Assembly: GCF_003991155.1 (NCBI RefSeq)
Contig: NZ_CP031293.1
DNA: 64,000 nucleotides
From: Escherichia coli
GTDB taxonomy: Bacteria > Pseudomonadota > Gammaproteobacteria > Enterobacterales > Enterobacteriaceae
Direction: 5' to 3' (one strand)
Positions 1,093 through 43,920 of the stretch are shown one piece after another. Below the pieces are notes generated by a model. That model saw only the letters and a program-made list of their open reading frames with translations, was not told the origin of the DNA and searched no databases. The translations under genes and the position numbers were made by a program. The stretch's first letter is position 1. Every line of letters starts with the position of its first letter.

Positions 1093-1156
1093 AAGAAAAC
1101 GCCTGTACTAAAACCGACCCGCGGTACAGGCGAAGAGTACGGGCCTACATCGGAAG
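1093..1156 (-). ncRNA. rydC: RydC small regulatory RNA (Hfq-dependent, pseudoknotted)
   Basis: Minus-strand sequence cttccgatgtaggcccgtactcttcgcctgtaccgcgggtcggttttagtacaggcgttttctt in the cybB-ydcA intergenic region matches my recollection of RydC; contains the stem cctgtac/gtacagg and a terminal U-run. Confidence 0.7.
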
Positions 1157-2672: not shown

Positions 2673-3190
2673 TTTTTCGTGGGATGAGCTAAGGCTTTCA
2701 GCTTTTTTAGATACACAAGCCGCGTTTCAAGAAATCGAACTTGCCTTTCAAGATCCTCAATGCGTCGGTCTTTTGACAGCTCCAATGCTGATGCCGCTTT
2801 TTCTGGATCAACTGATATTGCAATGTTTCTTTTGGTGCCAATCTTGAGCGCGCGTAAACCAGCTTCTCCGCGCTCTTCATAAACCTTCAGCCACCTGGCT
2901 ACAGAACCACTACCAGCAAGCATAAAGTGAGCAGCAGCCTGATTAAGAGACATGTGCTGCTCGATCACAGCTTTCACGACCTTAATACGCAACTCAGGAT
3001 CAGCACTAACACCTTTAGGTTTGGGAATTAAACCTTTTTCTCCATGTTTTTCATAGAGGGCAACCCATGTCCTGACCTGGGTTCGGGGGACACCAAAACG
3101 TGCCGAGATGATCCTGTAACCATCATCAGTAGTGAAGTAGTGATTCACGACTTCAAGGCGCTTTTCAAAAGGGTATTTTGGCTTTGACAT
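2669..3190 (-). CDS. insJ: IS150 OrfA (InsJ), HTH DNA-binding transposase component
   Basis: 173-aa ORF MSKPKYPFEKRLEVVNHYFTTDDGYRIISARFGVPRTQVRTW..., recognised as IS150 InsJ. Confidence 0.9.
   Translation of the reverse strand: MSKPKYPFEKRLEVVNHYFTTDDGYRIISARFGVPRTQVRTWVALYEKHGEKGLIPKPKGVSADPELRIKVVKAVIEQHMSLNQAAAHFMLAGSGSVARWLKVYEERGEAGLRALKIGTKRNIAISVDPEKAASALELSKDRRIEDLERQVRFLETRLVYLKKLKALAHPTKK
2702..2708 (-). promoter_or_regulatory. Programmed -1 ribosomal frameshift heptamer A_AAA_AAG for InsJK fusion transposase
   Basis: Plus-strand cttttttag at 2702-2710 is AAAAAAG on the coding strand, inside the insJ/insK overlap. Confidence 0.7.
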
Positions 3191-3567
3191 ATCAGGGGCT
3201 ATTCCATTTCATCGTCCAACAAAATGGGTGCAGTACACAGTTGATAGAAATATTGGTCGGGGCCTTCGTCTTTCTGATTCCCGGTTAGCCTGAAAACAGA
3301 AAGTCTCAGGCACCCGTGAGCATCCTATGTGGTTTCCTTAAGGACGAAAATAATCACCTGACGAAATTGCGTGCTGTTTTCCAGAATTTTTCGTCATTCG
3401 GTTTAGCCAGTTTAATCATTCGTTACTCTCTTCATTCCAATGGCATTATTCTTCTCTGCCATAATTGTTGTAAAAATGTGACGCAAAGAGGTTTTTGGTC
3501 GTAAGAAATTACCGTCAAGTGCCGATGACTTTCTATCAGGAGTAAACCTGGAAGAGAGACAACGGTA

Positions 3568-5208
3568 ATGAATACAACTCCCTCACAGCGATTAGGTTTT
3601 TTGCATCACATCAGGCTGGTTCCGTTATTTGCCTGCATTCTTGGCGGTATCTTAGTTCTATTCGCATTAAGTTCTGCTCTGGCTGGCTATTTCCTCTGGC
3701 AGGCCGATCGCGATCAGCGTGATGTTACTGCGGAGATTGAGATTCGGACCGGGTTAGCGAACAGTTCAGATTTTTTGCGTTCAGCCCGGATCAATATGAT
3801 TCAGGCCGGGGCAGCGAGTCGTATTGCGGAAATGGAAGCAATGAAGCGAAATATTGCGCAAGCCGAATCGGAGATTAAACAGTCGCAGCAAGGTTATCGT
3901 GCTTATCAGAATCGACCGGTGAAAACACCTGCTGATGAAGCCCTCGACACTGAATTAAATCAACGCTTCCAGGCTTATATCACGGGTATGCAACCGATGT
4001 TGAAATATGCCAAAAATGGCATGTTTGAAGCGATTATCAATCATGAAAGTGAGCAGATCCGACCGCTGGATAATGCTTATACCGATATTTTGAACAAAGC
4101 CGTTAAGATACGTAGCACCAGAGCCAACCAACTGGCGGAACTGGCCCATCAGCGCACCCGCCTGGGTGGGATGTTCATGATTGGCGCGTTTGTGCTTGCC
4201 CTGGTGATGACGCTGATAACATTTATGGTGCTACGTCGGATCGTCATTCGTCCACTGCAAAATGCCGCACAACGGATTGAAAAAATCGCCAGTGGCGATC
4301 TGACGATGAATGATGAACCGGCGGGTCGTAATGAAATCGGTCGCTTAAGTCGTCATTTACAGCAAATGCAGCATTCACTGGGGATGACTGTAGGGACCGT
4401 TCGACAGGGCGCGGAAGAGATTTATCGTGGCACCAGCGAAATTTCAGCTGGCAATGCGGACCTGTCATCTCGCACCGAAGAACAAGCGGCGGCTATCGAA
4501 CAAACTGCCGCCAGCATGGAGCAACTCACTGCGACGGTGAAACAGAATGCGGATAACGCGCATCATGCCAGCAAACTGGCGCAAGAGGCTTCTATTAAAG
4601 CCAGCGATGGCGGGCAGATGGTTTCCGGTGTAGTAAAAACGATGGGCGCTATCTCCACGAGTTCGAAGAAAATTTCTGAGATCACCGCCGTCATCAACAG
4701 TATTGCTTTCCAGACGAATATTCTGGCACTGAATGCTGCCGTTGAAGCCGCGCGAGCGGGTGAGCAAGGGCGTGGATTTGCCGTTGTCGCCAGCGAAGTA
4801 CGGACACTCGCAAGCCGCAGCGCTCAGGCGGCGAAAGAGATTGAAGGCTTGATCAGTGAATCAGTCAGGTTAATTGACCTGGGATCGGATGAGGTGGCCA
4901 CGGCCGGGAAAACCATGAGCACTATTGTTGATGCCGTCGCGAGTGTCACACATATCATGCAGGAAATTGCCGCCGCCTCGGATGAACAAAGTAGAGGCAT
5001 AACGCAGGTTAGCCAGGCGATTTCTGAAATGGATAAGGTGACGCAACAGAATGCTTCTCTGGTAGAAGAGGCCTCAGCGGCGGCGGTGTCCCTTGAAGAA
5101 CAGGCGGCACGATTAACTGAGGCGGTGGACGTATTCCGTCTGAACAAACATTCTGTGTCGGCAGAACCTCGCGGAGCGGGTGAACCAGTTAGTTTCGCTA
5201 CGGTGTGA
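3568..5208 (+). CDS. trg: Methyl-accepting chemotaxis protein III (ribose/galactose sensor)
   Basis: 546-aa ORF; N-terminal TM, periplasmic domain, HAMP, and the conserved MCP signalling domain (...[15 protein letters not shown]...). Confidence 0.9.
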
Positions 5209-5217
5209 AAATGTTCA

Positions 5218-5240
5218 AGGAAGGGATCGACAGATCCCTT
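5218..5240. terminator. Hairpin between convergent trg and ydcI
   Basis: gaagggatcgacagatcccttc forms a perfect 8-bp stem immediately after the trg stop. Confidence 0.5.
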
Positions 5241-5246
5241 CACCTT

Positions 5247-6170
5247 TCAGAACGGCATTGATTTTCGAATAGCGTTAATCATCAACTGGCAACCAGAAGA
5301 GAACGTCGCATCTACGCGGGTCAGTATTCCAATCGGTTCGCCTGCACCATGTCCCGGAACAGGCAGGGCCACCAGCGTGGCATGACGCAGGTCGTCTTTT
5401 ACAGCGCCAGAAGGGACAAACCACACGTAGTCGTATTCAACCGTAAGTTGACGAGATAGCGAAGCAGACAGCGTTTCGATACAACCCGAAGGAATTTTAC
5501 ATCCCTGGCTCTGCACTAATGCATCTGAATGCTGGCGTGGCGCAGTGCCTTCTGGTGATACAACGACCGGCCATTCCAGCACCCGGCTTAGCGTTACGTT
5601 CTCCTGAAGTAGCGGATGATTGGGGCGGACAACCAGCTTCAGCGATTCAAGAAACAGCAGTTCGTAATTAAGCCCGGTCATCAGTTCAGGACCTGACATC
5701 CGACCAATGCCGATATCGATTTCCCCGGTTTTTAAACCCGCCAGAATCATAGGGTTACTCATTGTCGCAACTTGCAAGGTCGTCTCTTTTTGTTGCTGAT
5801 GAAACTGACCTATAACCGAAGGTAATATCCCCAGTGCCGCAGTAGGTAGTGCACCAACCCTGACGATATCATTATTAAGACCTTCTTTACGATGAAGCGA
5901 CTGTCCAGCAGTGTTGATGGCGTCAAGAACTCTGACTGCATGCGTTAAAAATTGTTCGCCGGGTAAGGTAAGTTGCGCCCCCTGACGACCACGCTCAAAC
6001 AAGCGAGCGCCCGTCAGCTGCTCCAGTTCATTCAATGTCTTAGAGAGCGCAGGTTGACTCAAATTAAGGGTTTCAGCCGCGCGCCCCAAAGTTCCTTGTT
6101 GTGCGACAGCTACGAATGTATGAAGGTGGCGCAAACGGATGCGCTGACTAAACAGACTATTTTTTTCCAT
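5247..6170 (-). CDS. ydcI: LysR-family transcriptional regulator
   Basis: ORF 5247..6311; start set at MEKNSLFSQRIRLRHLHTFVAV (ATG at 6170) to give about 307 aa; N-terminal HTH and LysR substrate-binding domain. Confidence 0.8.
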   Translation of the reverse strand: MEKNSLFSQRIRLRHLHTFVAVAQQGTLGRAAETLNLSQPALSKTLNELEQLTGARLFERGRQGAQLTLPGEQFLTHAVRVLDAINTAGQSLHRKEGLNNDIVRVGALPTAALGILPSVIGQFHQQQKETTLQVATMSNPMILAGLKTGEIDIGIGRMSGPELMTGLNYELLFLESLKLVVRPNHPLLQENVTLSRVLEWPVVVSPEGTAPRQHSDALVQSQGCKIPSGCIETLSASLSRQLTVEYDYVWFVPSGAVKDDLRHATLVALPVPGHGAGEPIGILTRVDATFSSGCQLMINAIRKSMPF

Positions 6171-6386
6171 AAGCGATGTTAAAAACGAAGCGGTGTCGCT
6201 GACAAGTGAAGTTGTTTGATTATGATAACTTGATTGCAAAATATTATTAACAATTAAAGCAATTATGTTACAGCAAAATGGATAATATTGATGTTTTCGC
6301 GGCGAGATCACAGTTTGTAAATTCTTCCCGCCGGAGTGAATGCGGTTACCTACACTCCAGATTACTGACCACTGGAGGCAGACACT

Positions 6387-7730
6387 ATGGCGAACAGCAT
6401 CACGGCGGATGAGATTCGGGAACAGTTTTCGCAGGCAATGTCAGCCATGTACCAGCAAGAAGTTCCGCAGTACGGCACGCTGCTGGAACTGGTAGCTGAT
6501 GTGAATCTGGCTGTGCTGGAAAACAATCCTCAACTGCACGAAAAAATGGTAAATGCAGACGAGCTGGCGCGACTGAATGTTGAACGTCATGGGGCGATTC
6601 GTGTTGGGACTGCACAAGAGCTTGCTACTCTTCGGCGGATGTTTGCCATTATGGGGATGTACCCGGTGAGCTATTACGATCTCTCGCAGGCGGGAGTGCC
6701 GGTACATTCCACAGCATTTCGGCCCATTGATGATGCTTCTCTGGCGCGTAATCCATTCCGCATTTTTACCTCATTACTCCGCCTTGAGCTTATCGAGAAC
6801 GAATTTTTGCGCCAGAAAGCGGCGGAGATTCTGCGTCAGCGCGATATCTTCACCCCACGTTGTCGACAACTGTTAGAGGAGTATGAGCAGCGGGGCGGTT
6901 TTAACGAAACACAGGCACAGGAGTTTGTGCAGGAAGCCCTGGAAACGTTTCGTTGGCACCAGTCAGCAACGGTAGATGAAGAAACCTATCGCGCCTTGCA
7001 CAACGAACATCGGTTGATTGCTGATGTGGTCTGTTTTCCTGGATGCCATATCAACCACCTGACGCCACGTACGCTGGATATTGACCGGGTGCAGTCAATG
7101 ATGCCTGAATGCGGGATTGAACCCAAAATTCTGATCGAAGGGCCGCCGCGCCGCGAGGTACCTATTTTACTACGCCAGACCAGCTTTAAAGCACTGGAAG
7201 AGACGGTGTTGTTTGCAGGGCAGAAACAGGGTACGCATACCGCGCGCTTTGGTGAAATAGAGCAGCGTGGTGTGGCATTAACGCCGAAAGGACGACAACT
7301 GTATGATGATCTACTGCGGAACGCTGGAACCGGGCAGGATAATCTCACTCACCAAATGCATTTACAGGAAACCTTCCGCACTTTTCCTGACAGTGAGTTT
7401 TTAATGCGTCAGCAAGGGTTGGCATGGTTCCGGTACCGTCTGACGCCTTCAGGTGAGGCGCATCGTCAGGCGATTCATCCCGGAGACGATCCACAGCCCT
7501 TAATTGAACGTGGTTGGGTAGTGGCGCAACCCATTACCTATGAAGATTTCTTGCCTGTTAGCGCGGCGGGGATCTTCCAGTCAAATCTGGGTAATGAAAC
7601 GCAGGCACGCAGTCACGGTAATGCCAGTCGCGAAGCATTTGAGCAGGCGTTGGGCTGCCCGGTTTTGGATGAGTTCCAGCTTTATCAGGAAGCGGAAGAA
7701 CGCAGTAAACGTCGCTGTGGTTTGCTTTAA
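6387..7730 (+). CDS. ydcJ: DUF1338-family metalloenzyme YdcJ
   Basis: 447-aa ORF in conserved position between ydcI and opgD. Confidence 0.75.
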   Translation: MANSITADEIREQFSQAMSAMYQQEVPQYGTLLELVADVNLAVLENNPQLHEKMVNADELARLNVERHGAIRVGTAQELATLRRMFAIMGMYPVSYYDLSQAGVPVHSTAFRPIDDASLARNPFRIFTSLLRLELIENEFLRQKAAEILRQRDIFTPRCRQLLEEYEQRGGFNETQAQEFVQEALETFRWHQSATVDEETYRALHNEHRLIADVVCFPGCHINHLTPRTLDIDRVQSMMPECGIEPKILIEGPPRREVPILLRQTSFKALEETVLFAGQKQGTHTARFGEIEQRGVALTPKGRQLYDDLLRNAGTGQDNLTHQMHLQETFRTFPDSEFLMRQQGLAWFRYRLTPSGEAHRQAIHPGDDPQPLIERGWVVAQPITYEDFLPVSAAGIFQSNLGNETQARSHGNASREAFEQALGCPVLDEFQLYQEAEERSKRRCGLL

Positions 7731-7954
7731 ATTCTGACCATCCGCCTTTGCAAAAATTTGCCTGATTTTACAAACGAATCAGGCTCATCCCATCGACATA
7801 AAAAAATTGCCGATTTATGCATATTCTCTCAGTTCAACAATTGGATTATTAATAAATATTGTCTAGAGTGAGCGGTCATAAATAAGCACTTTCTTGCCGC
7901 TGAAAACGACCAGCGCGGGACCATTCACAACACCAGAAGGACTCACTTTCAGGT

Positions 7955-9610
7955 ATGGATCGTAGACGATTTATTAAAGGTTCAATGGCTATGGCCGCCG
8001 TGTGCGGTACCAGCGGCATTGCTTCTCTTTTTTCTCAGGCGGCATTCGCGGCAGATTCTGATATTGCCGACGGGCAAACCCAGCGTTTTGACTTCTCCAT
8101 TCTACAGTCAATGGCGCACGACTTAGCGCAAACAGCGTGGCGTGGCGCGCCGCGTCCGTTACCTGACACGCTGGCGACAATGACGCCGCAGGCTTATAAC
8201 AGTATTCAATACGACGCCGAAAAATCGCTCTGGCATAACGTTGAGAACCGTCAACTGGACGCTCAGTTCTTCCATATGGGAATGGGATTCCGTCGCCGCG
8301 TTCGTATGTTTTCTGTTGATCCCGCAACACATCTGGCGCGTGAAATTCACTTTCGCCCGGAGTTGTTCAAATACAACGATGCGGGTGTTGATACCAAACA
8401 ATTAGAAGGGCAAAGTGATCTCGGTTTTGCCGGTTTTCGCGTGTTTAAAGCCCCCGAACTGGCGCGCCGTGATGTAGTATCATTCCTCGGTGCGAGTTAT
8501 TTCCGCGCCGTTGACGACACATATCAATACGGTCTATCGGCTCGCGGCCTGGCGATCGACACTTACACCGACAGTAAAGAAGAGTTCCCCGACTTTACCG
8601 CCTTCTGGTTTGATACGGTAAAACCGGGGGCAACCACCTTTACCGTTTATGCGTTGCTCGATAGCGCCAGCATTACTGGTGCCTATAAGTTCACTATCCA
8701 TTGCGAGAAAAGTCAGGTGATTATGGATGTGGAAAATCACCTGTATGCGCGCAAAGACATTAAACAGCTGGGCATTGCGCCGATGACCAGTATGTTCAGC
8801 TGCGGTACTAATGAACGTCGGATGTGCGACACCATTCATCCGCAAATCCATGACTCTGATCGTTTGTCCATGTGGCGGGGCAACGGCGAGTGGATTTGTC
8901 GTCCGCTGAACAATCCGCAAAAATTGCAGTTCAATGCTTACACCGACAACAACCCGAAAGGGTTTGGTTTATTGCAACTGGATCGTGATTTCTCCCATTA
9001 TCAGGACATTATGGGCTGGTATAACAAACGCCCAAGTCTGTGGGTGGAACCGCGTAACAAGTGGGGTAAGGGCACCATCGGCCTGATGGAAATCCCAACA
9101 ACGGGCGAAACGCTGGATAACATTGTCTGCTTCTGGCAGCCAGAAAAAGCTGTAAAAGCGGGTGATGAGTTTGCATTCCAGTATCGTCTGTACTGGAGTG
9201 CGCAACCGCCTGTTCATTGCCCATTAGCGCGCGTTATGGCGACGCGTACCGGCATGGGTGGTTTCCCGGAAGGTTGGGCTCCTGGTGAACACTATCCCGA
9301 AAAATGGGCGCGTCGTTTTGCCGTCGATTTCGTTGGTGGTGATCTGAAGGCTGCCGCGCCAAAAGGCATTGAGCCGGTGATTACGCTTTCCAGTGGGGAA
9401 GCGAAGCAAATCGAAATTCTCTATATTGAACCCATTGATGGTTATCGTATTCAGTTTGACTGGTATCCGACTTCGGACTCCACTGATCCGGTCGATATGC
9501 GGATGTATCTGCGTTGTCAGGGCGACGCTATCAGTGAAACATGGCTGTATCAGTATTTCCCGCCAGCGCCGGATAAACGTCAGTATGTTGACGACCGCGT
9601 GATGAGTTAA
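7955..9610 (+). CDS. opgD: Glucans biosynthesis protein D (periplasmic, Tat-exported)
   Basis: 551-aa ORF with twin-arginine motif [18 protein letters not shown]...AFA; OpgG/OpgD family. Confidence 0.9.
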
Positions 9611-9749
9611 TCGTTTTTTCTTCGGCACCTTCTTCGGGAGGTGCCGTCTGGTTAAACACGATCCCGCTCGCATTTTTCCCTAAGTTAAATGAGTAATCTG
9701 ATGGTGTGTATTTCAGATACACCTTGTCAGCCACTAACAGGGAGTGCGT

Positions 9750-9974
9750 ATGTTTCCAGAATATCGAGATTTAATATCCCGTCTGAAAAACGAAAATCCT
9801 CGCTTTATGTCCTTGTTCGATAAACACAATAAACTTGATCATGAAATTGCCAGAAAGGAAGGTTCCGACGGTCGAGGGTACAATGCGGAAGTGGTCCGCA
9901 TGAAAAAACAAAAGCTACAGTTAAAAGATGAGATGCTCAAAATCCTGCAGCAGGAGAGCGTCAAAGAGGTGTAA
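9750..9974 (+). CDS. ydcH: DUF465 small protein YdcH
   Basis: ORF 9744..9974; start at MFPEYRDLISRLKNENPRF gives 74 aa (alternative start at 9744). Confidence 0.7.
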   Translation: MFPEYRDLISRLKNENPRFMSLFDKHNKLDHEIARKEGSDGRGYNAEVVRMKKQKLQLKDEMLKILQQESVKEV

Positions 9975-10036
9975 ACTTTCCTAAGCCGCCAGCCAGGCGG
10001 CTTTTTTAACAACTGCATGGATTGACTGGAGATAAG

Positions 10037-10576
10037 ATGACCGAAACGATAAAAGTAAGTGAATCACTTGAATTACATGCTGTTGCAGAAAGTCATGTCA
10101 CACCTCTTTATCAGTTAATCTGTAAAAATAGAACCTGGTTACAGCAGTCGCTAAACTGGCCGCAGTTTGTTCAAAGTGAAGAGGACACGCGAAAAACGGT
10201 GCAGGGCAATGTAATGTTGCATCAACGCGGCTATGCCAAAATGTTCATGATTTTCAAAGAAGATGAACTTATCGGCGTTATCTCGTTTAATCGTATTGAA
10301 CCACTGAATAAAACCGCTGAAATCGGCTACTGGCTGGACGAATCTCATCAGGGGCAGGGGATCATTTCTCAGGCGCTGCAGGCATTGATTCATCATTACG
10401 CTCAGTCTGGTGAACTTAGACGCTTCGTGATCAAATGTCGGGTGGACAATGCGCAAAGCAACCAGGTCGCTTTGCGCAATGGTTTTATCCTTGAAGGTTG
10501 CCTGAAACAGGCTGAGTTCCTGAATGATGCCTATGATGATGTGAACTTATACGCGCGTATTATCGATTCACAATAA
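10037..10576 (+). CDS. rimL: Ribosomal-protein L7/L12 serine acetyltransferase
   Basis: Start at [20 protein letters not shown]; GNAT fold; 179 aa. Confidence 0.85.
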
Positions 10577-11548
10577 CCCTGCCAACGGCGTTCGAGTAAT
10601 GCGCTCCTCGCCGTTAATGACTTTTGGACCACGGACATGAACCGTGTCGCCATCAAAGGCTTCAACGACGGCGTGGTCGGTTAACTCCACATGGTTTTCA
10701 ATTATCACCGCACCTGTAATACGGCTCTCACCTTGTATGACAACGTGCTCGTCGAGCAGAATCGGTCCGCCACGTACCACGGCATTTCCGCCAATCAAGA
10801 CATGATGTTTTAACACACAATTACCTTCCACAATGGCATATTCCGCCACCTGCGAACTGTAATGAATCGTCGGAATGGCATCTTCTTCTATGCCAGCTTT
10901 CACCTGCGCGTGACCGTAGACTTTAGCACAATCGCATAGCCAGACGTTGTTCTCTTCATTACCTTCAATACTGGCAAAATCAAAAACTTCGGCGCGATGT
11001 TCAATAAAAGCATACCGGACGACGGCATCGCCATAAATTTGTGCCTGGTGGACAATCCGCGAGGCGCTAACCCTCGCGCGATCATAAATTTGTAGCAGGA
11101 GTTGATGGTCGGGCGTTAAGCCTTGTGCGGCGACGATCATAGAATGTTGATCAATTAAGGCGTGACCAAATATTCTACATTGACCGCAAACTAATGAGTC
11201 ACTAATGGTGACACTGTCACTTATATATGCACCCTGGCTGATTTCACTATTATCGATCCAGACATTATCCGTTGCGTAAACCTCTCCCCACAGCACGCTG
11301 GTGCCGGTGATACGCGTATTCCCGGAAATCACCGTTCCGCCGAACGCAATAGCATTCTGGTCGTAAATCCAGCAATTTCCTTCCTGTGCTAACACCGTTT
11401 CGCGATCGATCCAGCCGCCAGCGCTTCCTGCTATCACATCGTTAAAATCGCTAATGGCGATAATCTGCCGTAATAACACATTTTTTTTAGTGCCATCTTC
11501 CTGATAACTAAAGGCTCGCTGTTCTTCACTTAGACGATATTTGCGCAT
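10568..11548 (-). CDS. ydcK: Left-handed beta-helix (hexapeptide-repeat) protein YdcK
   Basis: 326-aa ORF with hexapeptide-repeat character; conserved position. Confidence 0.75.
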
Positions 11549-36729: not shown

Positions 36730-37347
36730 ATGATTAAGGTGTATGGCGTACCCGGCTGGGGCTCTACAATCAGTGAGCTGATGCTAACACTGGCTGATAT
36801 TCCTTATCAGTTCGTTGATGTCAGTGGTTTTGACCGCGAGGGAACTTCACGCGAGTTATTGAAAACCCTGAACCCGTTGTGTCAGATTCCGACACTGGCG
36901 CTGGAAAATGACGAGATTATGACGGAGACAGCGGCGATTGCATTGATGGTTCTCGATCGTCGCCCGGACCTTGCGCCACCGCTTGGGCGCGCCGAACGTC
37001 AGCAGTTTCAACAGTTATTGGTCTGGCTGGTTGCTAATGTCTATCCAACGTTCACTTTCGCCGATTACCCTGAGCGTTGGGCATCTGACGCACCTGAACA
37101 GTTAAAGAAGAATGTAATTGAATATCGCAAATCACTTTATATCTGGCTGAATTCACAATTGACCGCTGAACCTTATGCCTTTGGTGAGCAACTAACGCTG
37201 GTGGACTGTTATCTCTGCACCATGCGCACATGGGGACCGGGACACGAATGGTTTCAGGATAATGCCCCGAACATCAATGCGATTGCTGATGCTGTATGTC
37301 AGATACCAAAGCTAAAAGGGATACTAAAGAGGAATGGAATCATTTAA
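36730..37347 (+). CDS. yncG: Glutathione S-transferase-like protein
   Basis: 205 aa; GST N- and C-terminal domain pattern. Confidence 0.8.
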   Translation: MIKVYGVPGWGSTISELMLTLADIPYQFVDVSGFDREGTSRELLKTLNPLCQIPTLALENDEIMTETAAIALMVLDRRPDLAPPLGRAERQQFQQLLVWLVANVYPTFTFADYPERWASDAPEQLKKNVIEYRKSLYIWLNSQLTAEPYAFGEQLTLVDCYLCTMRTWGPGHEWFQDNAPNINAIADAVCQIPKLKGILKRNGII

Positions 37348-38397
37348 TTATTTTTCCCATCGATTTCGCCCACTTTCTTTCGCCCGGTATAACGCAGCGT
37401 CGGCATCTGAAATAATTTGTTCAGCCGTTTTTGCGGGAGCAGAACAGGTAATCCCCTGACTAACCGTAACGAATGCATTAACAGCAGATGCCTGATGCGG
37501 GATAGCTGCCAGTTTAAGTTCTTGCTTCACTCTGGCTGCTACCGTCTCTGCTTCCGGCAATGTTGCATTAAAAAGTATGATGACAAACTCTTCGCCACCA
37601 TAACGGACAACAACATCCTCCGACTGGCGAGTTGAACGCTGTAGAGCGTCGGCAACTTGTATTAGACAACGATCCCCAGCAGGATGCCCGTAAGTGTCGT
37701 TGTAACGTTTAAAAAAATCGACATCCAGCATAATAAGAGCAAATGACCCGCCGTTATCTATCGCGTCGTGTAAGATACTGTTCATTGCACGTCGGTTTGC
37801 TATCCCAGTTAAAGGATCACGATGTGCTAATGCATCAAGGCGATTAATTAACTGGTTGTTATAACTGTTTTGTACCCATGCTTCTTCAAACCAACGTAAC
37901 AAAATGAGTCGCCCACCATATAGCGCCAGTGAAAAAATACACCATACAACAGCAAAATGAATATTGATCTGTTGATTAAGCATAAGACTCGCTATTGGAG
38001 TGGTGAACCATAAGGGAATGACAAATGCGAGCAATGATGGGGTATGGAAATAAAGTGCGATAACGCCACTAAGCATTAATAATACACATAGTGGATAAGC
38101 AAACTGCAGCGTCCAGTACGCAATAAAGTGATAACTACACCATGACCATAGCAGGCTCAGGGCAACTAATAGCACCTGGATAGGTAATGTTTTTTGCCGA
38201 GGGATGAGTAGTAAACCACTGCAAATCAGCAGAATACCCGTTGCAGATATATCAATAGAATGTATAAGGCTTTTTTCATTTAACCAGGGTGGAGTAAGGT
38301 CATTAAACAGAACACGGCGCAGCAAAATTATCAATGCAAAACTGACATTGATAAAAGCAAACCATGGCAAACTAATCGTCATGCCGCGAATAACCAT
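37348..38397 (-). CDS. Membrane-anchored diguanylate cyclase (GGDEF domain); accessory, not one of the K-12 DGCs I recognise
   Basis: 349 aa; N-terminal multi-TM region, C-terminal GGDEF domain with intact active site RYGGEEF and DPLTGIANRR start. Confidence 0.8.
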   Translation of the reverse strand: MVIRGMTISLPWFAFINVSFALIILLRRVLFNDLTPPWLNEKSLIHSIDISATGILLICSGLLLIPRQKTLPIQVLLVALSLLWSWCSYHFIAYWTLQFAYPLCVLLMLSGVIALYFHTPSLLAFVIPLWFTTPIASLMLNQQINIHFAVVWCIFSLALYGGRLILLRWFEEAWVQNSYNNQLINRLDALAHRDPLTGIANRRAMNSILHDAIDNGGSFALIMLDVDFFKRYNDTYGHPAGDRCLIQVADALQRSTRQSEDVVVRYGGEEFVIILFNATLPEAETVAARVKQELKLAAIPHQASAVNAFVTVSQGITCSAPAKTAEQIISDADAALYRAKESGRNRWEK

Positions 38398-38491
38398 ATC
38401 GCGGCGGGTTTTCCATGAGTGATGCGTTTTTCTTCGTTCAGCCCTTTTTTAACCAAAAAAGGGCAGGATACCTGCCCGGTATGCAGTAAAT

Positions 38492-40468
38492 TTATGGTGT
38501 CACTATATTGAACCAAAATTCAAAATTATCCATATAACCTAACAGCTCGTTGAGTTTTTCCGCATTGCCAGTAATTTTGACATCTTCTTTGGCCGTGGCT
38601 TCTTTCAGCGTCTCTTCTTTCAGTACAATTTTGTTCAATACATCACGAGACAGAGTGATAGTGGCATCAGCATCCGAAGCCTCTACACCAGCGGTATGAT
38701 TGAGAACACCATTTTCAAGCTCCACTTTATAGGTGCCGCCATCTTCACCAAAATCGAAATTCAACACGGTTTTGGCATCTGCCGCTTTCTCACCATTAAT
38801 ATGGACGGCAAGATAATCAAAGAACATCTCCGGCGTCATCGCACGCACGGTGTCTGGGCTGGCAGTATTTGGTGTTGGTAATTTTTGTACGCCATTACGC
38901 AATTCCTGTGCGCCAGTGAGATAGAAATTACGCCACGGCCCAGATTCAGCCTGATAGCCTAACTGCTCAAGCGCATCAGCTTCCAGATTTCTCGCTGCCT
39001 GGTTGTTTGGATCGGCAAACACCACCTTACTAACAACTTGGGCAACCCAGCGGAAATTACCCTGGTCATAATCCTGTTTGGCTTTCTGTAAAATGGCATC
39101 AGCACCGCCCATATACTCGACGAATTTTTTTGCGCCTTCTTCTGGCGGCAGTTCATCAAGCGTCGCGGGGTTACCATCAAACCAGCCGAGATAAAGCACG
39201 TAAGTTGCTTTCACGTCATGACTTACCGAACCGTAATAGCCGCGATTCGCCCAGGTATTAGCCAGTGAAGAGGGCAGTTTAAAGTTTGCGGCAATTTCAT
39301 CACGGGTCATCCCTTGATTTGCCATACGCAGAGTTTGATCATTGATGTAACGATACAAATCACGCTGGCTTTTAAGCAGTTTGACCACGTTATCGTTGCC
39401 CCAGGTTGGCCAGTGATGTTGAGCGAGAATAATCTCGGCTTTATCTCCCCATAAATTGAGAGCTTCGTTAATATATTTTGACCACGGCAGCGGTTGGCGA
39501 ATTTTAGCCCCACGCAGCGAATAGGTGTTATGAAGGGTGTGCGTGACATCTTCAGCGGTTTCGATCAGTTTCTTTTCTTCAATAAACCACAGCATTTCAG
39601 AAGGCGCTTCAGAGCCTGGCGCCATCAAGAAATCATAGGTCAACCCGTCAATAGTTTCTTTTTGTCCGGTTTTAGTGATGTAGTTAGTAGGAGCAATCAA
39701 CGTGACCGTTCCTGCTGAAGTGGTTGTTCCCAGTCCCGCGCCAACCTGGCCTTTAACATCAGGTTTCAATAAGTTGCCATACATATAACTGGCTCGTCGG
39801 CTCATCACATTGCCAGCCATAATATTTTCGGAAACGGCTTCCTCCAAAAATCCGGCTGGCGCGTAGATTTTAACTTTGCCTGATTTAACGTCAGCTTCAT
39901 CAATTACGCCGCGAACACCACCGTAGTGATCGACATGACTGTGTGTGTAGATAACCGCTACTACCGGTTTTTTGTCGCGATTTTTGTAATAGAGATCCAT
40001 ACCCACTTTGGCTGTTTCTGCTGAAACAAGGGGATCAACGATGGTAATACCCTCTTTACCTTCAATGATGGTCATATTTGATAGATCGAGATTGCGAATC
40101 TGATAGACACCTTCAGTTACTTCGAATAACCCGCTGATATTTATCAGTTGCGCCTGACGCCATAAACTTGGATTCACCGTATCAGGGGCTTTATCACCTT
40201 CTTTAATAAAAGCGTATTGTTGTGGATCCCAGATAACATTTCCTTTTTCGCCCTTAATCACGTCTTGAGGGATAGGGGCAACAAAACCTTTATGGGCATC
40301 AGTAAAGTCAGTGTTATCAGAAAACGGCAACTGGTTGTAGAGTAAATTGTTTGCTTGTTGCGTGGCTGCGGTGGCGTCTTTAGGGGCTTCCGCCGCGAGG
40401 AGTGGCAAAGAACTGGTGGTGAACAATCCCGTTATTAGCAGACTTTTAACAATATGATTAAGCTGCAT
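38492..40468 (-). CDS. Periplasmic alkyl/aryl-sulfatase (metallo-beta-lactamase fold, SdsA1/YjcS-like)
   Basis: 658 aa; signal peptide; MBL motif YTHSHVDHYGG; C-terminal dimerisation and SCP2-like region typical of type III sulfatases. Confidence 0.8.
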   Translation of the reverse strand: MQLNHIVKSLLITGLFTTSSLPLLAAEAPKDATAATQQANNLLYNQLPFSDNTDFTDAHKGFVAPIPQDVIKGEKGNVIWDPQQYAFIKEGDKAPDTVNPSLWRQAQLINISGLFEVTEGVYQIRNLDLSNMTIIEGKEGITIVDPLVSAETAKVGMDLYYKNRDKKPVVAVIYTHSHVDHYGGVRGVIDEADVKSGKVKIYAPAGFLEEAVSENIMAGNVMSRRASYMYGNLLKPDVKGQVGAGLGTTTSAGTVTLIAPTNYITKTGQKETIDGLTYDFLMAPGSEAPSEMLWFIEEKKLIETAEDVTHTLHNTYSLRGAKIRQPLPWSKYINEALNLWGDKAEIILAQHHWPTWGNDNVVKLLKSQRDLYRYINDQTLRMANQGMTRDEIAANFKLPSSLANTWANRGYYGSVSHDVKATYVLYLGWFDGNPATLDELPPEEGAKKFVEYMGGADAILQKAKQDYDQGNFRWVAQVVSKVVFADPNNQAARNLEADALEQLGYQAESGPWRNFYLTGAQELRNGVQKLPTPNTASPDTVRAMTPEMFFDYLAVHINGEKAADAKTVLNFDFGEDGGTYKVELENGVLNHTAGVEASDADATITLSRDVLNKIVLKEETLKEATAKEDVKITGNAEKLNELLGYMDNFEFWFNIVTP

Positions 40469-40772
40469 CTTAAGCGTCTCCAGAATGGACTTTTATTGGG
40501 GGTAATTACGGATGAAAATTTTTGTGAGGGCAAGAATAACTATAATGGGCGTTAATAAATTGGCAAGCCGGGAACTTGATGTTTTCTTAATGGCATGTTG
40601 GCGAAGAATATATTCTGCAAGTTGACGTTTTTGTTGGCGCTTTATTTAAAAGGGTGTAGTACAAACCTGTACAAATTCAAGTAGGCATTATTGCCGTAAA
40701 AAAGCATCACCGGACACATAACATTCACAACGTGTGTTAATTTTACTGACATCTTTCAAAAGGAGCACAATC

Positions 40773-41000
40773 ATGCCGCACATAGACATTAAATGTTTTC
40801 CACGTGAACTGGACGAACAACAAAAAGCAGCACTTGCTGCAGATATTACCGACGTTATTATTCGCCATCTGAACAGTAAAGACAGTTCGATAAGCATTGC
40901 TCTACAGCAGATTCAACCAGAATCATGGCAAGCTATCTGGGACGCCGAAATTGCGCCCCAAATGGAGACGCTGATAAAGAAACCTGGTTACAGCATGTAA
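40773..41000 (+). CDS. pptA: 4-oxalocrotonate tautomerase-family enzyme PptA
   Basis: Start at [33 protein letters not shown]... (75 aa); Pro1 tautomerase signature. Confidence 0.85.
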
Positions 41001-42606: not shown

Positions 42607-43831
<1,225 letters not shown>

Positions 43832-43860
43832 CAACAGCGCCTGACGGCGCTGTGTCTGGC

Positions 43861-43920
<60 letters not shown>

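Follow-up and report, generated by a model that had tools for sequence, protein, structure and literature searches.

The window analyzed here, a 64,000-nucleotide stretch of Escherichia coli contig NZ_CP031293.1 (assembly GCF_003991155.1) taken at its full length, carries between yncG and pptA a tandem pair of genes for a MASE5-GGDEF diguanylate cyclase and an alkyl-sulfatase of the metallo-beta-lactamase fold. From comparison of related genomes the pair looks old at this locus in Escherichia, and the arrangement in K-12, where the pair is missing, looks like the derived state; the adjacency of the cyclase gene and yncG appears to be older still. The explanation as a whole, comprising the identities of the two genes, their tandem arrangement with a hairpin between them, an old pair at the locus, and later losses, is one that we hold with good confidence. 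The genes and their flanks are these.

37348..38397, minus strand: gene for the MASE5-GGDEF diguanylate cyclase, 349 residues (open reading frame, Pfam, RefSeq annotation)
38492..40468, minus strand: gene for the alkyl-sulfatase, metallo-beta-lactamase fold, type III, predicted periplasmic, 658 residues (open reading frame, Pfam, PDB matches)
36730..37347, plus strand: yncG, the left flank, glutathione S-transferase family, a 205-residue open reading frame whose stop codon abuts that of the cyclase gene
40773..41000 (RefSeq start), plus strand: pptA, the right flank, a tautomerase gene divergent from the sulfatase gene (NCBIfam NF002324)

No other open reading frame lies between yncG and pptA in the window, and the product of pptA scores 158 bits on NF002324 against a cut-off of 83. 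The two proteins are identical to RefSeq WP_000236738.1, 'GGDEF domain-containing protein', and WP_001176574.1, 'alkyl/aryl-sulfatase', and in strain 2016C-3878 the DNA is 100% identical, with RefSeq giving the order yncG, GGDEF domain-containing protein, alkyl/aryl-sulfatase, pptA. The pair thus named consists of ordinary, intact chromosomal genes from well-described families, already annotated under generic names. The original prediction, made from the sequence of the window, had proposed the same two genes at the same coordinates, and the open reading frame list, Pfam and the database matches all agree with it.

That prediction also placed Rhs-related sequence at this position in K-12 and described the pair as a strain-variable segment missing there, and on each of these points annotation and blastn comparison with K-12 MG1655 concur. 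Between yncG and pptA, MG1655 has yncH, the rhsE pseudogene, ydcD, yncO, the yncI pseudogene and ydcC, a transposase gene of the ISAs1 (H-repeat) type. Homology with the window ends at 37345, at the yncG stop codon, and returns at 40684, 216 bp upstream of the sulfatase ATG, which defines the following interval.

37346..40683, no strand: stretch of 3338 bp without a K-12 counterpart (blastn against MG1655); K-12 has 6.1 kb of Rhs and ISAs1 material in its place

At least 80% of the 3.1-kb pair is present in 438 of 5426 complete E. coli genomes (about 8%), and in 86 E. coli genomes the stop codons of yncG and of the cyclase gene meet directly (TAA/TTA). The carriers MS 69-1, MDR_56, WCHEC96200 and GF3-3 have a truncated copy of ISAs1 next to the 3' end of the cyclase gene, to which MS 69-1 (L004) adds an RHS core protein upstream, and in the sampled carriers flanked in this way the final two cyclase codons are changed (to ..WAL, in place of ..WEK). 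The pair thus occurs together with Rhs material, in most carriers to judge from this sample, and neither takes the place of the other. Certain carriers have an inactivated sulfatase gene: GF3-3 (L108) has an internal stop in it, and MSB1_4I an insertion of IS1. The sole full-length match to the pair in the plasmid collection was NZ_CP134663.1 (PLSDB), a 4.9-Mb E. coli replicon that is evidently a chromosome; genuine plasmids of Pantoea, Klebsiella, Salmonella and Citrobacter carry a sulfatase homolog without the cyclase. As a separate observation, the 3' end of yncG (37200-37347, 148 bp) falls into discrete classes with 84-100% identity across E. coli genomes, a pattern suggestive of multiple old alleles or of recombination at the margin of the variable locus.

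A patchy distribution of this kind, at a locus that is a hotspot of Rhs and insertion sequence (IS) traffic, would also suit an accessory islet that certain lineages other than K-12 gained by horizontal transfer, as would the G+C content of the pair, lower than that of its flanks, and the sulfatase homologs on plasmids of the four genera named above. The original prediction had read the segment in this way, as an addition to the genome, and it is here that the evidence departs from it. The borders of the pair hold no integrase, no transposase or other IS gene, and no tRNA gene, and a repeat search found there only short two- or three-copy matches at chance level and no flanking direct repeat. 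A genomic island or mobile element was accordingly rejected as an identity for the segment: it has no mobility gene, no tRNA gene and no direct repeats, and at its left border two stop codons abut directly.

Divergent lineages share both the locus and the junction. In L016, which is filed as E. coli and is a separate species representative, the cyclase is 92% identical, the sequence of the yncG junction is the same as in the window, and the gene order is narV-yddE-nhoA-yddH-pptA-sulfatase-cyclase-yncG-ansP-yncE-pqqU. Assemblies with cyclases 93%, 82% and 76% identical likewise have the sulfatase gene and then the cyclase gene, and pptA-yddH-nhoA lies beside the pair in those with the 93% and 76% identical cyclases, the only two that reach far enough. 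Among the Escherichia lineages with the pair, synonymous divergence from the window rises to 0.9. A more distant relative, whose cyclase is 64% identical, has the order narZYWV-nhoA-yddH-cyclase-yncG-ansP without the sulfatase gene or pptA, so that the cyclase gene is syntenic there as well, and the divergence of both proteins follows genus groupings.

The genomes without the pair speak to the same question. In E. coli these have at least three distinct right-hand endpoints, in window coordinates: at 40399, where the sulfatase promoter and first 23 codons remain beside a copy of ISAs1 (ECONIH1, about 86 genomes); at 40540, beside an orphan Rhs C-terminal and immunity-like module (strain D8, about 159 genomes); and at 40684, with ydcC ending eleven bases away (K-12). 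Two of the three thus retain remnants of the sulfatase start or promoter, and nested endpoints next to IS and Rhs material fit repeated adjacent deletions. With fragments of the sulfatase 5' end persisting in non-carriers, with clean borders, and with shared synteny in divergent relatives, we consider acquisition of an islet quite improbable. In the explanation that we favor, the Rhs and ISAs1 (H-repeat) material would have entered the locus after the pair was present, and the pair would have been deleted several times, leaving K-12 in a derived state and the window in a conserved one.

Several observations weigh against this explanation. The G+C content of the pair is 42-47%, compared with about 50% in the flanks, and this together with carriage in about 8% of genomes would also fit an old acquisition. 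Between the window and MS 69-1 the synonymous divergence is 0.010 in the cyclase gene and 0.084 in the sulfatase gene, an eightfold difference. Such unequal divergence of adjacent genes implies that recombination has moved pieces between lineages, with breakpoints between or within the genes. The locus is accordingly a recombination mosaic, to judge from these divergences, and its common junctions are no strict proof of vertical descent. For the assembly L009 compared with the window the contrast is reversed, with synonymous divergence of 0.54 in the cyclase gene and 0.18 in the sulfatase gene.

The domain structure of the cyclase is complete, and its parts map to the window as follows.

37828..38373, minus strand: MASE5 membrane domain, residues 9-190 (Pfam E 6.6e-44; hydropathy; AlphaFold2)
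37360..37827, minus strand: GGDEF catalytic domain, residues 191-346 (Pfam E 1.6e-48; TIGR00254)
37585..37605, minus strand: RYGGEEF active-site motif, residues 265-271 (translation)
37615..37629, minus strand: position of the allosteric I-site, R257-Q-S-E-D261, RxxxD (alignment of 14 sequences; pairwise alignment to 8wcn)

The match to MASE5 (PF17178) spans model positions 2-192 of 192, and the GGDEF assignment (PF00990) is joined by a score of 158 bits on TIGR00254, for which the cut-off is 37.4; a sequence search of the PDB with the cyclase likewise returned GGDEF structures. A multi-helix N-terminal membrane domain and an intact RYGGEEF motif had both been predicted, and both are upheld. 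Hydropathy gives six hydrophobic segments, and an AlphaFold2 model of residues 1-192, built from 23 sequences, gives six helices (2-25, 42-64, 70-93, 100-115, 119-141 and 146-191) at a predicted local distance difference test score (pLDDT) of 87.3. The loops of the model have few residues each, apart from 26-41, and the final helix runs past the membrane towards the GGDEF domain. Foldseek comparison of the MASE5 model with the PDB found no significant match (best E 0.6, template-modeling score 0.29), and the family is small: a search with the domain only, among 1.84 billion representatives, gave 45 clusters (E <= 1e-3), of which many are fragments.

In an alignment of 14 orthologs, 50-93% identical, the residues D225, D227, K230, N233, D242, R265, GGEEF, K340 and R344 are invariant, and the active site is not degenerate. 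Matched by motif position, D225, N233, D242, R265, K340 and R344 correspond to D327, N335, D344, R366, K442 and R446 of PleD, and the cyclase has the full GGDEF motif together with the metal-, guanine- and phosphate-binding residues. The protein should therefore, by these sequence features, be a catalytically complete diguanylate cyclase of the inner membrane. Its synthesis of cyclic di-GMP (c-di-GMP) would answer to a signal perceived inside the membrane, the MASE5 domain, nearly devoid of periplasmic loops, passing through one long helix into the GGDEF domain. Between Escherichia lineages the ratio of nonsynonymous to synonymous substitution rates (dN/dS) of the cyclase gene is 0.15-0.23, which indicates purifying selection; within Escherichia the cyclase (76-86% identity) evolves much faster than the sulfatase (95-98%).

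The position of the I-site, at which cyclases are inhibited by their product, is unusual. D261 lies five residues before GGEEF, the arginine stands four and not three residues before it, and both R257 and D261 are invariant in the 14 orthologs. Three residues before D261 every one of the 14 sequences carries Q, S or T, which departs from the canonical RxxD, and pairwise alignment puts RPLD at this position in 8wcn. The canonical product-inhibition site is thus absent across the aligned cyclase family, with RxxxD in its place.

The cyclase shares its Pfam architecture, size and GGEEF site with the MASE5-GGDEF cyclases of Enterobacterales and is 50-52% identical to proteins of Enterobacter, Lelliottia, Leclercia, Pantoea, Hafnia and Salmonella; the Escherichia protein differs in its yncG-pptA locus, and the window allele in lacking an upstream ATG, discussed below. 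Proteins of this type are listed without an assigned function in Enterobacter ludwigii EL-703 (PMC7232144) and in Pantoea sp. YR343, as DGC3134 (PMC8294551).

With respect to a name, Povolotsky and Hengge (J Bacteriol 2016) reportedly named DgcX and DgcY as extra membrane-associated cyclases that occur in part of the E. coli strains other than K-12. DgcX, known from enteroaggregative E. coli and from E. coli O104:H4, resembles the window cyclase: it too is a membrane GGDEF cyclase that varies among E. coli strains other than K-12, and its active site is intact. It has an N-terminal domain of about 270 residues and eight helices, an intact RxxD, and a location beside lambdoid prophages at attB (PMC4287979), and the domain was later classed as MASE4 (PMC10459773). 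The window cyclase, by comparison, has a six-helix MASE5 domain of 190 residues, RxxxD, and no prophage genes nearby, and we rejected identity with DgcX. It is a plausible candidate for DgcY, in keeping with the original suggestion of an accessory cyclase described in non-K-12 lineages; no source name in its protein cluster reads DgcY, and literature searches for the name found none applied to E. coli.

The sulfatase is assigned by its domains and its solved homologs. Pfam finds Lactamase_B (PF00753), Alkyl_sulf_dimr (PF14863, E 1.2e-62), Alkyl_sulf_C (PF14864, E 7.3e-44) and SCP2 (PF02036), and the protein matches over its full length, at E 0 to 1e-186, the solved alkyl-sulfatases 7tl5 (1185 bits), 4nur (PSdsA), 4pdx (YjcS), 2yhe (Pisa1) and 2cfu (SdsA1). 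It has the architecture of the SdsA1 family, a metallo-beta-lactamase domain with HxHxDH, a dimerization domain and an SCP2-like C-terminal domain, and two short features stand out.

39926..39943, minus strand: zinc-binding motif HSHVDH, residues 176-181 (translation; aligns with HSHTDH of YjcS)
40391..40468, minus strand: signal peptide, approximately residues 1-26 (sequence and hydropathy; start of the homolog alignment)

The hydrophobic N-terminal peptide, MQLNHIVKSLLITGLFTTSSLPLLAA followed by EAP, combines a basic residue with a hydrophobic core and LLAA/EAP, and the solved homologs 7tl5 and 4nur align from residues 26-29 onward, which together fit export and cleavage. A signal-peptide-bearing sulfatase of the metallo-beta-lactamase fold, as originally proposed, is thus what the Pfam domains, the HSHVDH motif, the N-terminus and the start of the homolog alignment describe. 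The protein would be a Sec-exported, zinc-dependent enzyme that splits alkyl sulfate esters in the periplasm into alcohol and sulfate, and by homology it should have this activity.

In three-domain architecture, length and secretion signal the sulfatase is like SdsA1 of Pseudomonas aeruginosa, Pisa1, PSdsA and YjcS; among solved structures 7tl5 and PSdsA are nearest to it, and it differs from the SdsA1-type enzymes in that several genera have its gene linked to one for a cyclase. Its identity to K-12 YjcS (b4083) is 49%, and the yjcS gene lies at another locus, between ytcA and alsK, and on these two grounds orthology with YjcS was rejected. The sulfatase is rather a second alkyl-sulfatase, paralogous to YjcS by sequence identity and locus. 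Its dN/dS between Escherichia lineages, 0.03-0.07, indicates strong purifying selection, and E. albertii, E. whittamii, Citrobacter sedlakii and C. amalonaticus have members in its 90%-identity cluster.

Two candidate signals bear on the transcription of the pair.

40539..40566, minus strand: sigma-70-like promoter candidate for the sulfatase gene, TTGCCA-16-TATAGT (consensus scan, 10/12 matches)
38451..38477, minus strand: terminator-like hairpin GGGCAGG-uau-CCUGCCC + U6, between the sulfatase stop and the cyclase start

Sites in the candidate promoter region are no more numerous than in shuffled sequence; a GGAG Shine-Dalgarno sequence precedes the sulfatase ATG. The hairpin begins 14 nt after the sulfatase stop codon, and with its 7-bp stem, six GC pairs and U6 it conforms to the pattern of a Rho-independent terminator (predicted). 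It folds at -13.5 kcal/mol (z -1.9), it is kept with small changes in Escherichia lineages, and Enterobacter, Leclercia and Lelliottia have a GC-rich hairpin of unrelated sequence at the same intergenic position. Counting against a terminator are the modest z-score and the lack of a U-tract in the Leclercia version. An Rfam search of the interval found no riboswitch or other RNA family there. Since the tandem genes are split by this terminator-like hairpin, the cyclase gene is probably transcribed at a lower level; most transcripts would end after the sulfatase gene, and the cyclase gene would be reached by read-through or from a start of its own, as far as the arrangement of signals allows one to judge.

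Directly after the hairpin lies a codon that raises a different question, whether the cyclase of the window strain is properly made.

38443..38445, minus strand: AGG codon in place of the in-frame ATG that is present in the majority of E. coli carriers and in other lineages (translation KRAERRKTHHSWKTRRDMV)

Where it is present, the upstream ATG lies 16 codons before M1 of the 349-residue form, directly after the T-tract of the hairpin, and gives MAERRKTHHSWKTRRD-MVIRGM..., a form of 365 residues with a basic 16-residue N-terminal extension. ATG stands at the position of the window AGG in L004 (MS 69-1), L013, L016 and L106-L108, and all four E. coli carriers sampled (MS 69-1 and three others) have it; of 435 carriers, only 32 have the exact 81-mer with AGG. 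Upstream of M1 the frame is open as far as Enterobacter and Lelliottia, with indels in multiples of three and with a W and an R conserved, and many family members have an N-terminal extension of about 20 residues. No obvious Shine-Dalgarno sequence precedes either candidate cyclase start. These points tell against the completeness of our explanation, in that the cyclase may be poorly translated in the window strain from an AGG allele without a clear Shine-Dalgarno sequence; if the upstream start is the one used, the window allele would be N-terminally shortened or poorly expressed.

Taken further, the same observations would have the cyclase gene of the window strain becoming a pseudogene, its product not made or crippled despite the open frame. 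Decay of this kind has precedent in the species. Frameshifted E. coli alleles (P0003 and P0007) are truncated after residue 316 or 239, and their clusters hold 167 and 138 sequences, which shows the cyclase gene to be decaying in some E. coli lineages; dN/dS within E. coli is 0.79, from five substitutions only, and the sulfatase gene is also broken in some strains by the IS1 insertion or internal stop described above. The start at M1, however, is well attested. M1-V2 of the 349-residue form is invariant in 14 of 14 orthologs, forms that begin at M1 exist in Leclercia, Pantoea, Salmonella and Hafnia, and RefSeq picks the 349-residue start even in genomes that have the upstream ATG. The 349-residue frame, moreover, holds complete MASE5 and GGDEF domains with every catalytic residue. 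We therefore think that a cyclase on its way to becoming a pseudogene in the window strain is unlikely, and we retain the view that both genes are intact.

The association of the two genes extends beyond Escherichia. The contexts came in part from two scans of low yield: a scan of genome contigs with the full-length alignment, in which a generic GGDEF pattern, YNDxYGH, dominated and only some 7 loci of 80 proved to be genuine relatives of MASE5, and a scan of metagenomes with a degenerate DNA pattern, in which 10 loci of 120 proved genuine. Enterobacter asburiae, Leclercia adecarboxylata and Lelliottia jeotgali have a sulfatase gene (85-87% identical) and after it a MASE5 cyclase gene (50-52% identical), and the pair lies between tynA, for a copper amine oxidase, and feaB-feaR. 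At that locus, E. cloacae has only the cyclase gene. Some Salmonella enterica have the two genes side by side in divergent orientation, between a small multidrug-resistance gene and ttcA-dbpA-zntB. The adjacency thus persists across three chromosomal contexts and one change of orientation. Metagenome contig L119 has a tandem sulfatase-cyclase pair, and in L117 (Ga0308160_10000014, 4747-10637) the sulfatase gene is accompanied by genes for a 263-residue protein and a FadL-family outer-membrane channel, with a convergent MASE5-GGDEF gene, which hints that sulfatase and cyclase lie there among genes that handle long-chain hydrophobic compounds. The 263-residue protein has no match in Pfam or NCBIfam, and its identity with a 263-residue protein beside the cyclase gene in L014 was rejected, as the two do not match.

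Two side observations concern the position of the cyclase gene. In L096, L100, L103 and L105 (Enterobacter, Leclercia, Lelliottia) it always lies, accompanied by the sulfatase gene or not, between tynA and feaB-feaR, an aromatic-amine catabolism locus, and in Pantoea agglomerans (L104, 3959-6062) it is directly downstream of a glutathione S-transferase gene. The likeness of the latter to the yncG-cyclase adjacency of Escherichia and of the relative with the 64% identical cyclase may be coincidence or an older linkage.

A pairing that recurs in this way could reflect a single module, in which the cyclase would sense, in the membrane, the amphiphilic alkyl sulfate or the long-chain alcohol formed from it and raise c-di-GMP, leading to aggregation or biofilm while the sulfatase clears the compound. 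This is compatible with our explanation of the locus and adds a mechanism to it. Orthologs of both proteins (85-87% for the sulfatase, 48-52% for the cyclase) are adjacent in E. asburiae, Leclercia, Lelliottia and Salmonella in contexts other than that of Escherichia, and the tandem pair in L119 and the cluster with a FadL-like channel in L117 point the same way. With MASE5 modeled as almost without periplasmic loops, sensing within the membrane would be most plausible. There is also a precedent, in that sodium dodecyl sulfate (SDS) induces SiaD-dependent, c-di-GMP-dependent aggregation in P. aeruginosa (PMC4768041), and the SiaABCD system links an alkyl-sulfate detergent to c-di-GMP as the module would. 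SiaD itself is soluble and under a partner-switch phosphorylation system, whereas the window cyclase has a membrane domain and no sia genes in its neighborhood, and the window GGDEF domain scores 155 bits on the SiaD model, far under the family cut-off of 290.

On the other side, about half of the contexts examined, in what is a small sample, have the cyclase gene without a sulfatase gene nearby (E. cloacae, Hafnia, Pantoea, the relative with the 64% identical cyclase, L129, L173 and L205), plasmids carry sulfatase homologs without the cyclase, and a terminator-like hairpin separates the genes. The identity matrices of sulfatase and cyclase group the taxa alike, and from such congruent groupings the adjacency may simply be inherited and not repeatedly assembled. 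The literature search found no paper tying an alkyl-sulfatase to a diguanylate cyclase in E. coli. We regard a functional module as possible and put it forward tentatively.

Elsewhere in the window, a 1280-bp insertion at 42637-43916 holds a transposase gene of IS621 (IS110 family) at 42831-43811 on the plus strand; it lies in the spacer of nhoA and yddE, which contains repetitive extragenic palindromic (REP) sequence, and K-12 lacks it, its flanks there being joined directly. Three Rfam matches exceed the gathering score: SECIS_3 at 59188-59246 (plus strand), a selenocysteine insertion element; the small RNA RydC at 1093-1156 (minus strand); and the sok antitoxin RNA at 3161-3315 (minus strand), the RNA of a hok/sok-type locus.

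Both proteins were already in RefSeq and belong to described families, and variable GGDEF and EAL content in E. coli is documented. What changes is the direction of the events: the reading of the pair as an acquisition appears, from the comparison of loci, mostly wrong and in need of reversing, K-12 having lost the pair rather than the window strain having gained it. Studies of the c-di-GMP network that are based on K-12 would then miss a probably ancestral cyclase kept by about 8% of sequenced strains, one that belongs to a family without the canonical feedback site. The recurrent pairing of MASE5 cyclase and alkyl-sulfatase across genera offers a concrete hypothesis for the signal of MASE5. 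If it is true, MASE5 would get its first ligand class, and E. coli would have a detergent- or host-sulfolipid-responsive c-di-GMP input that has been lost in K-12.

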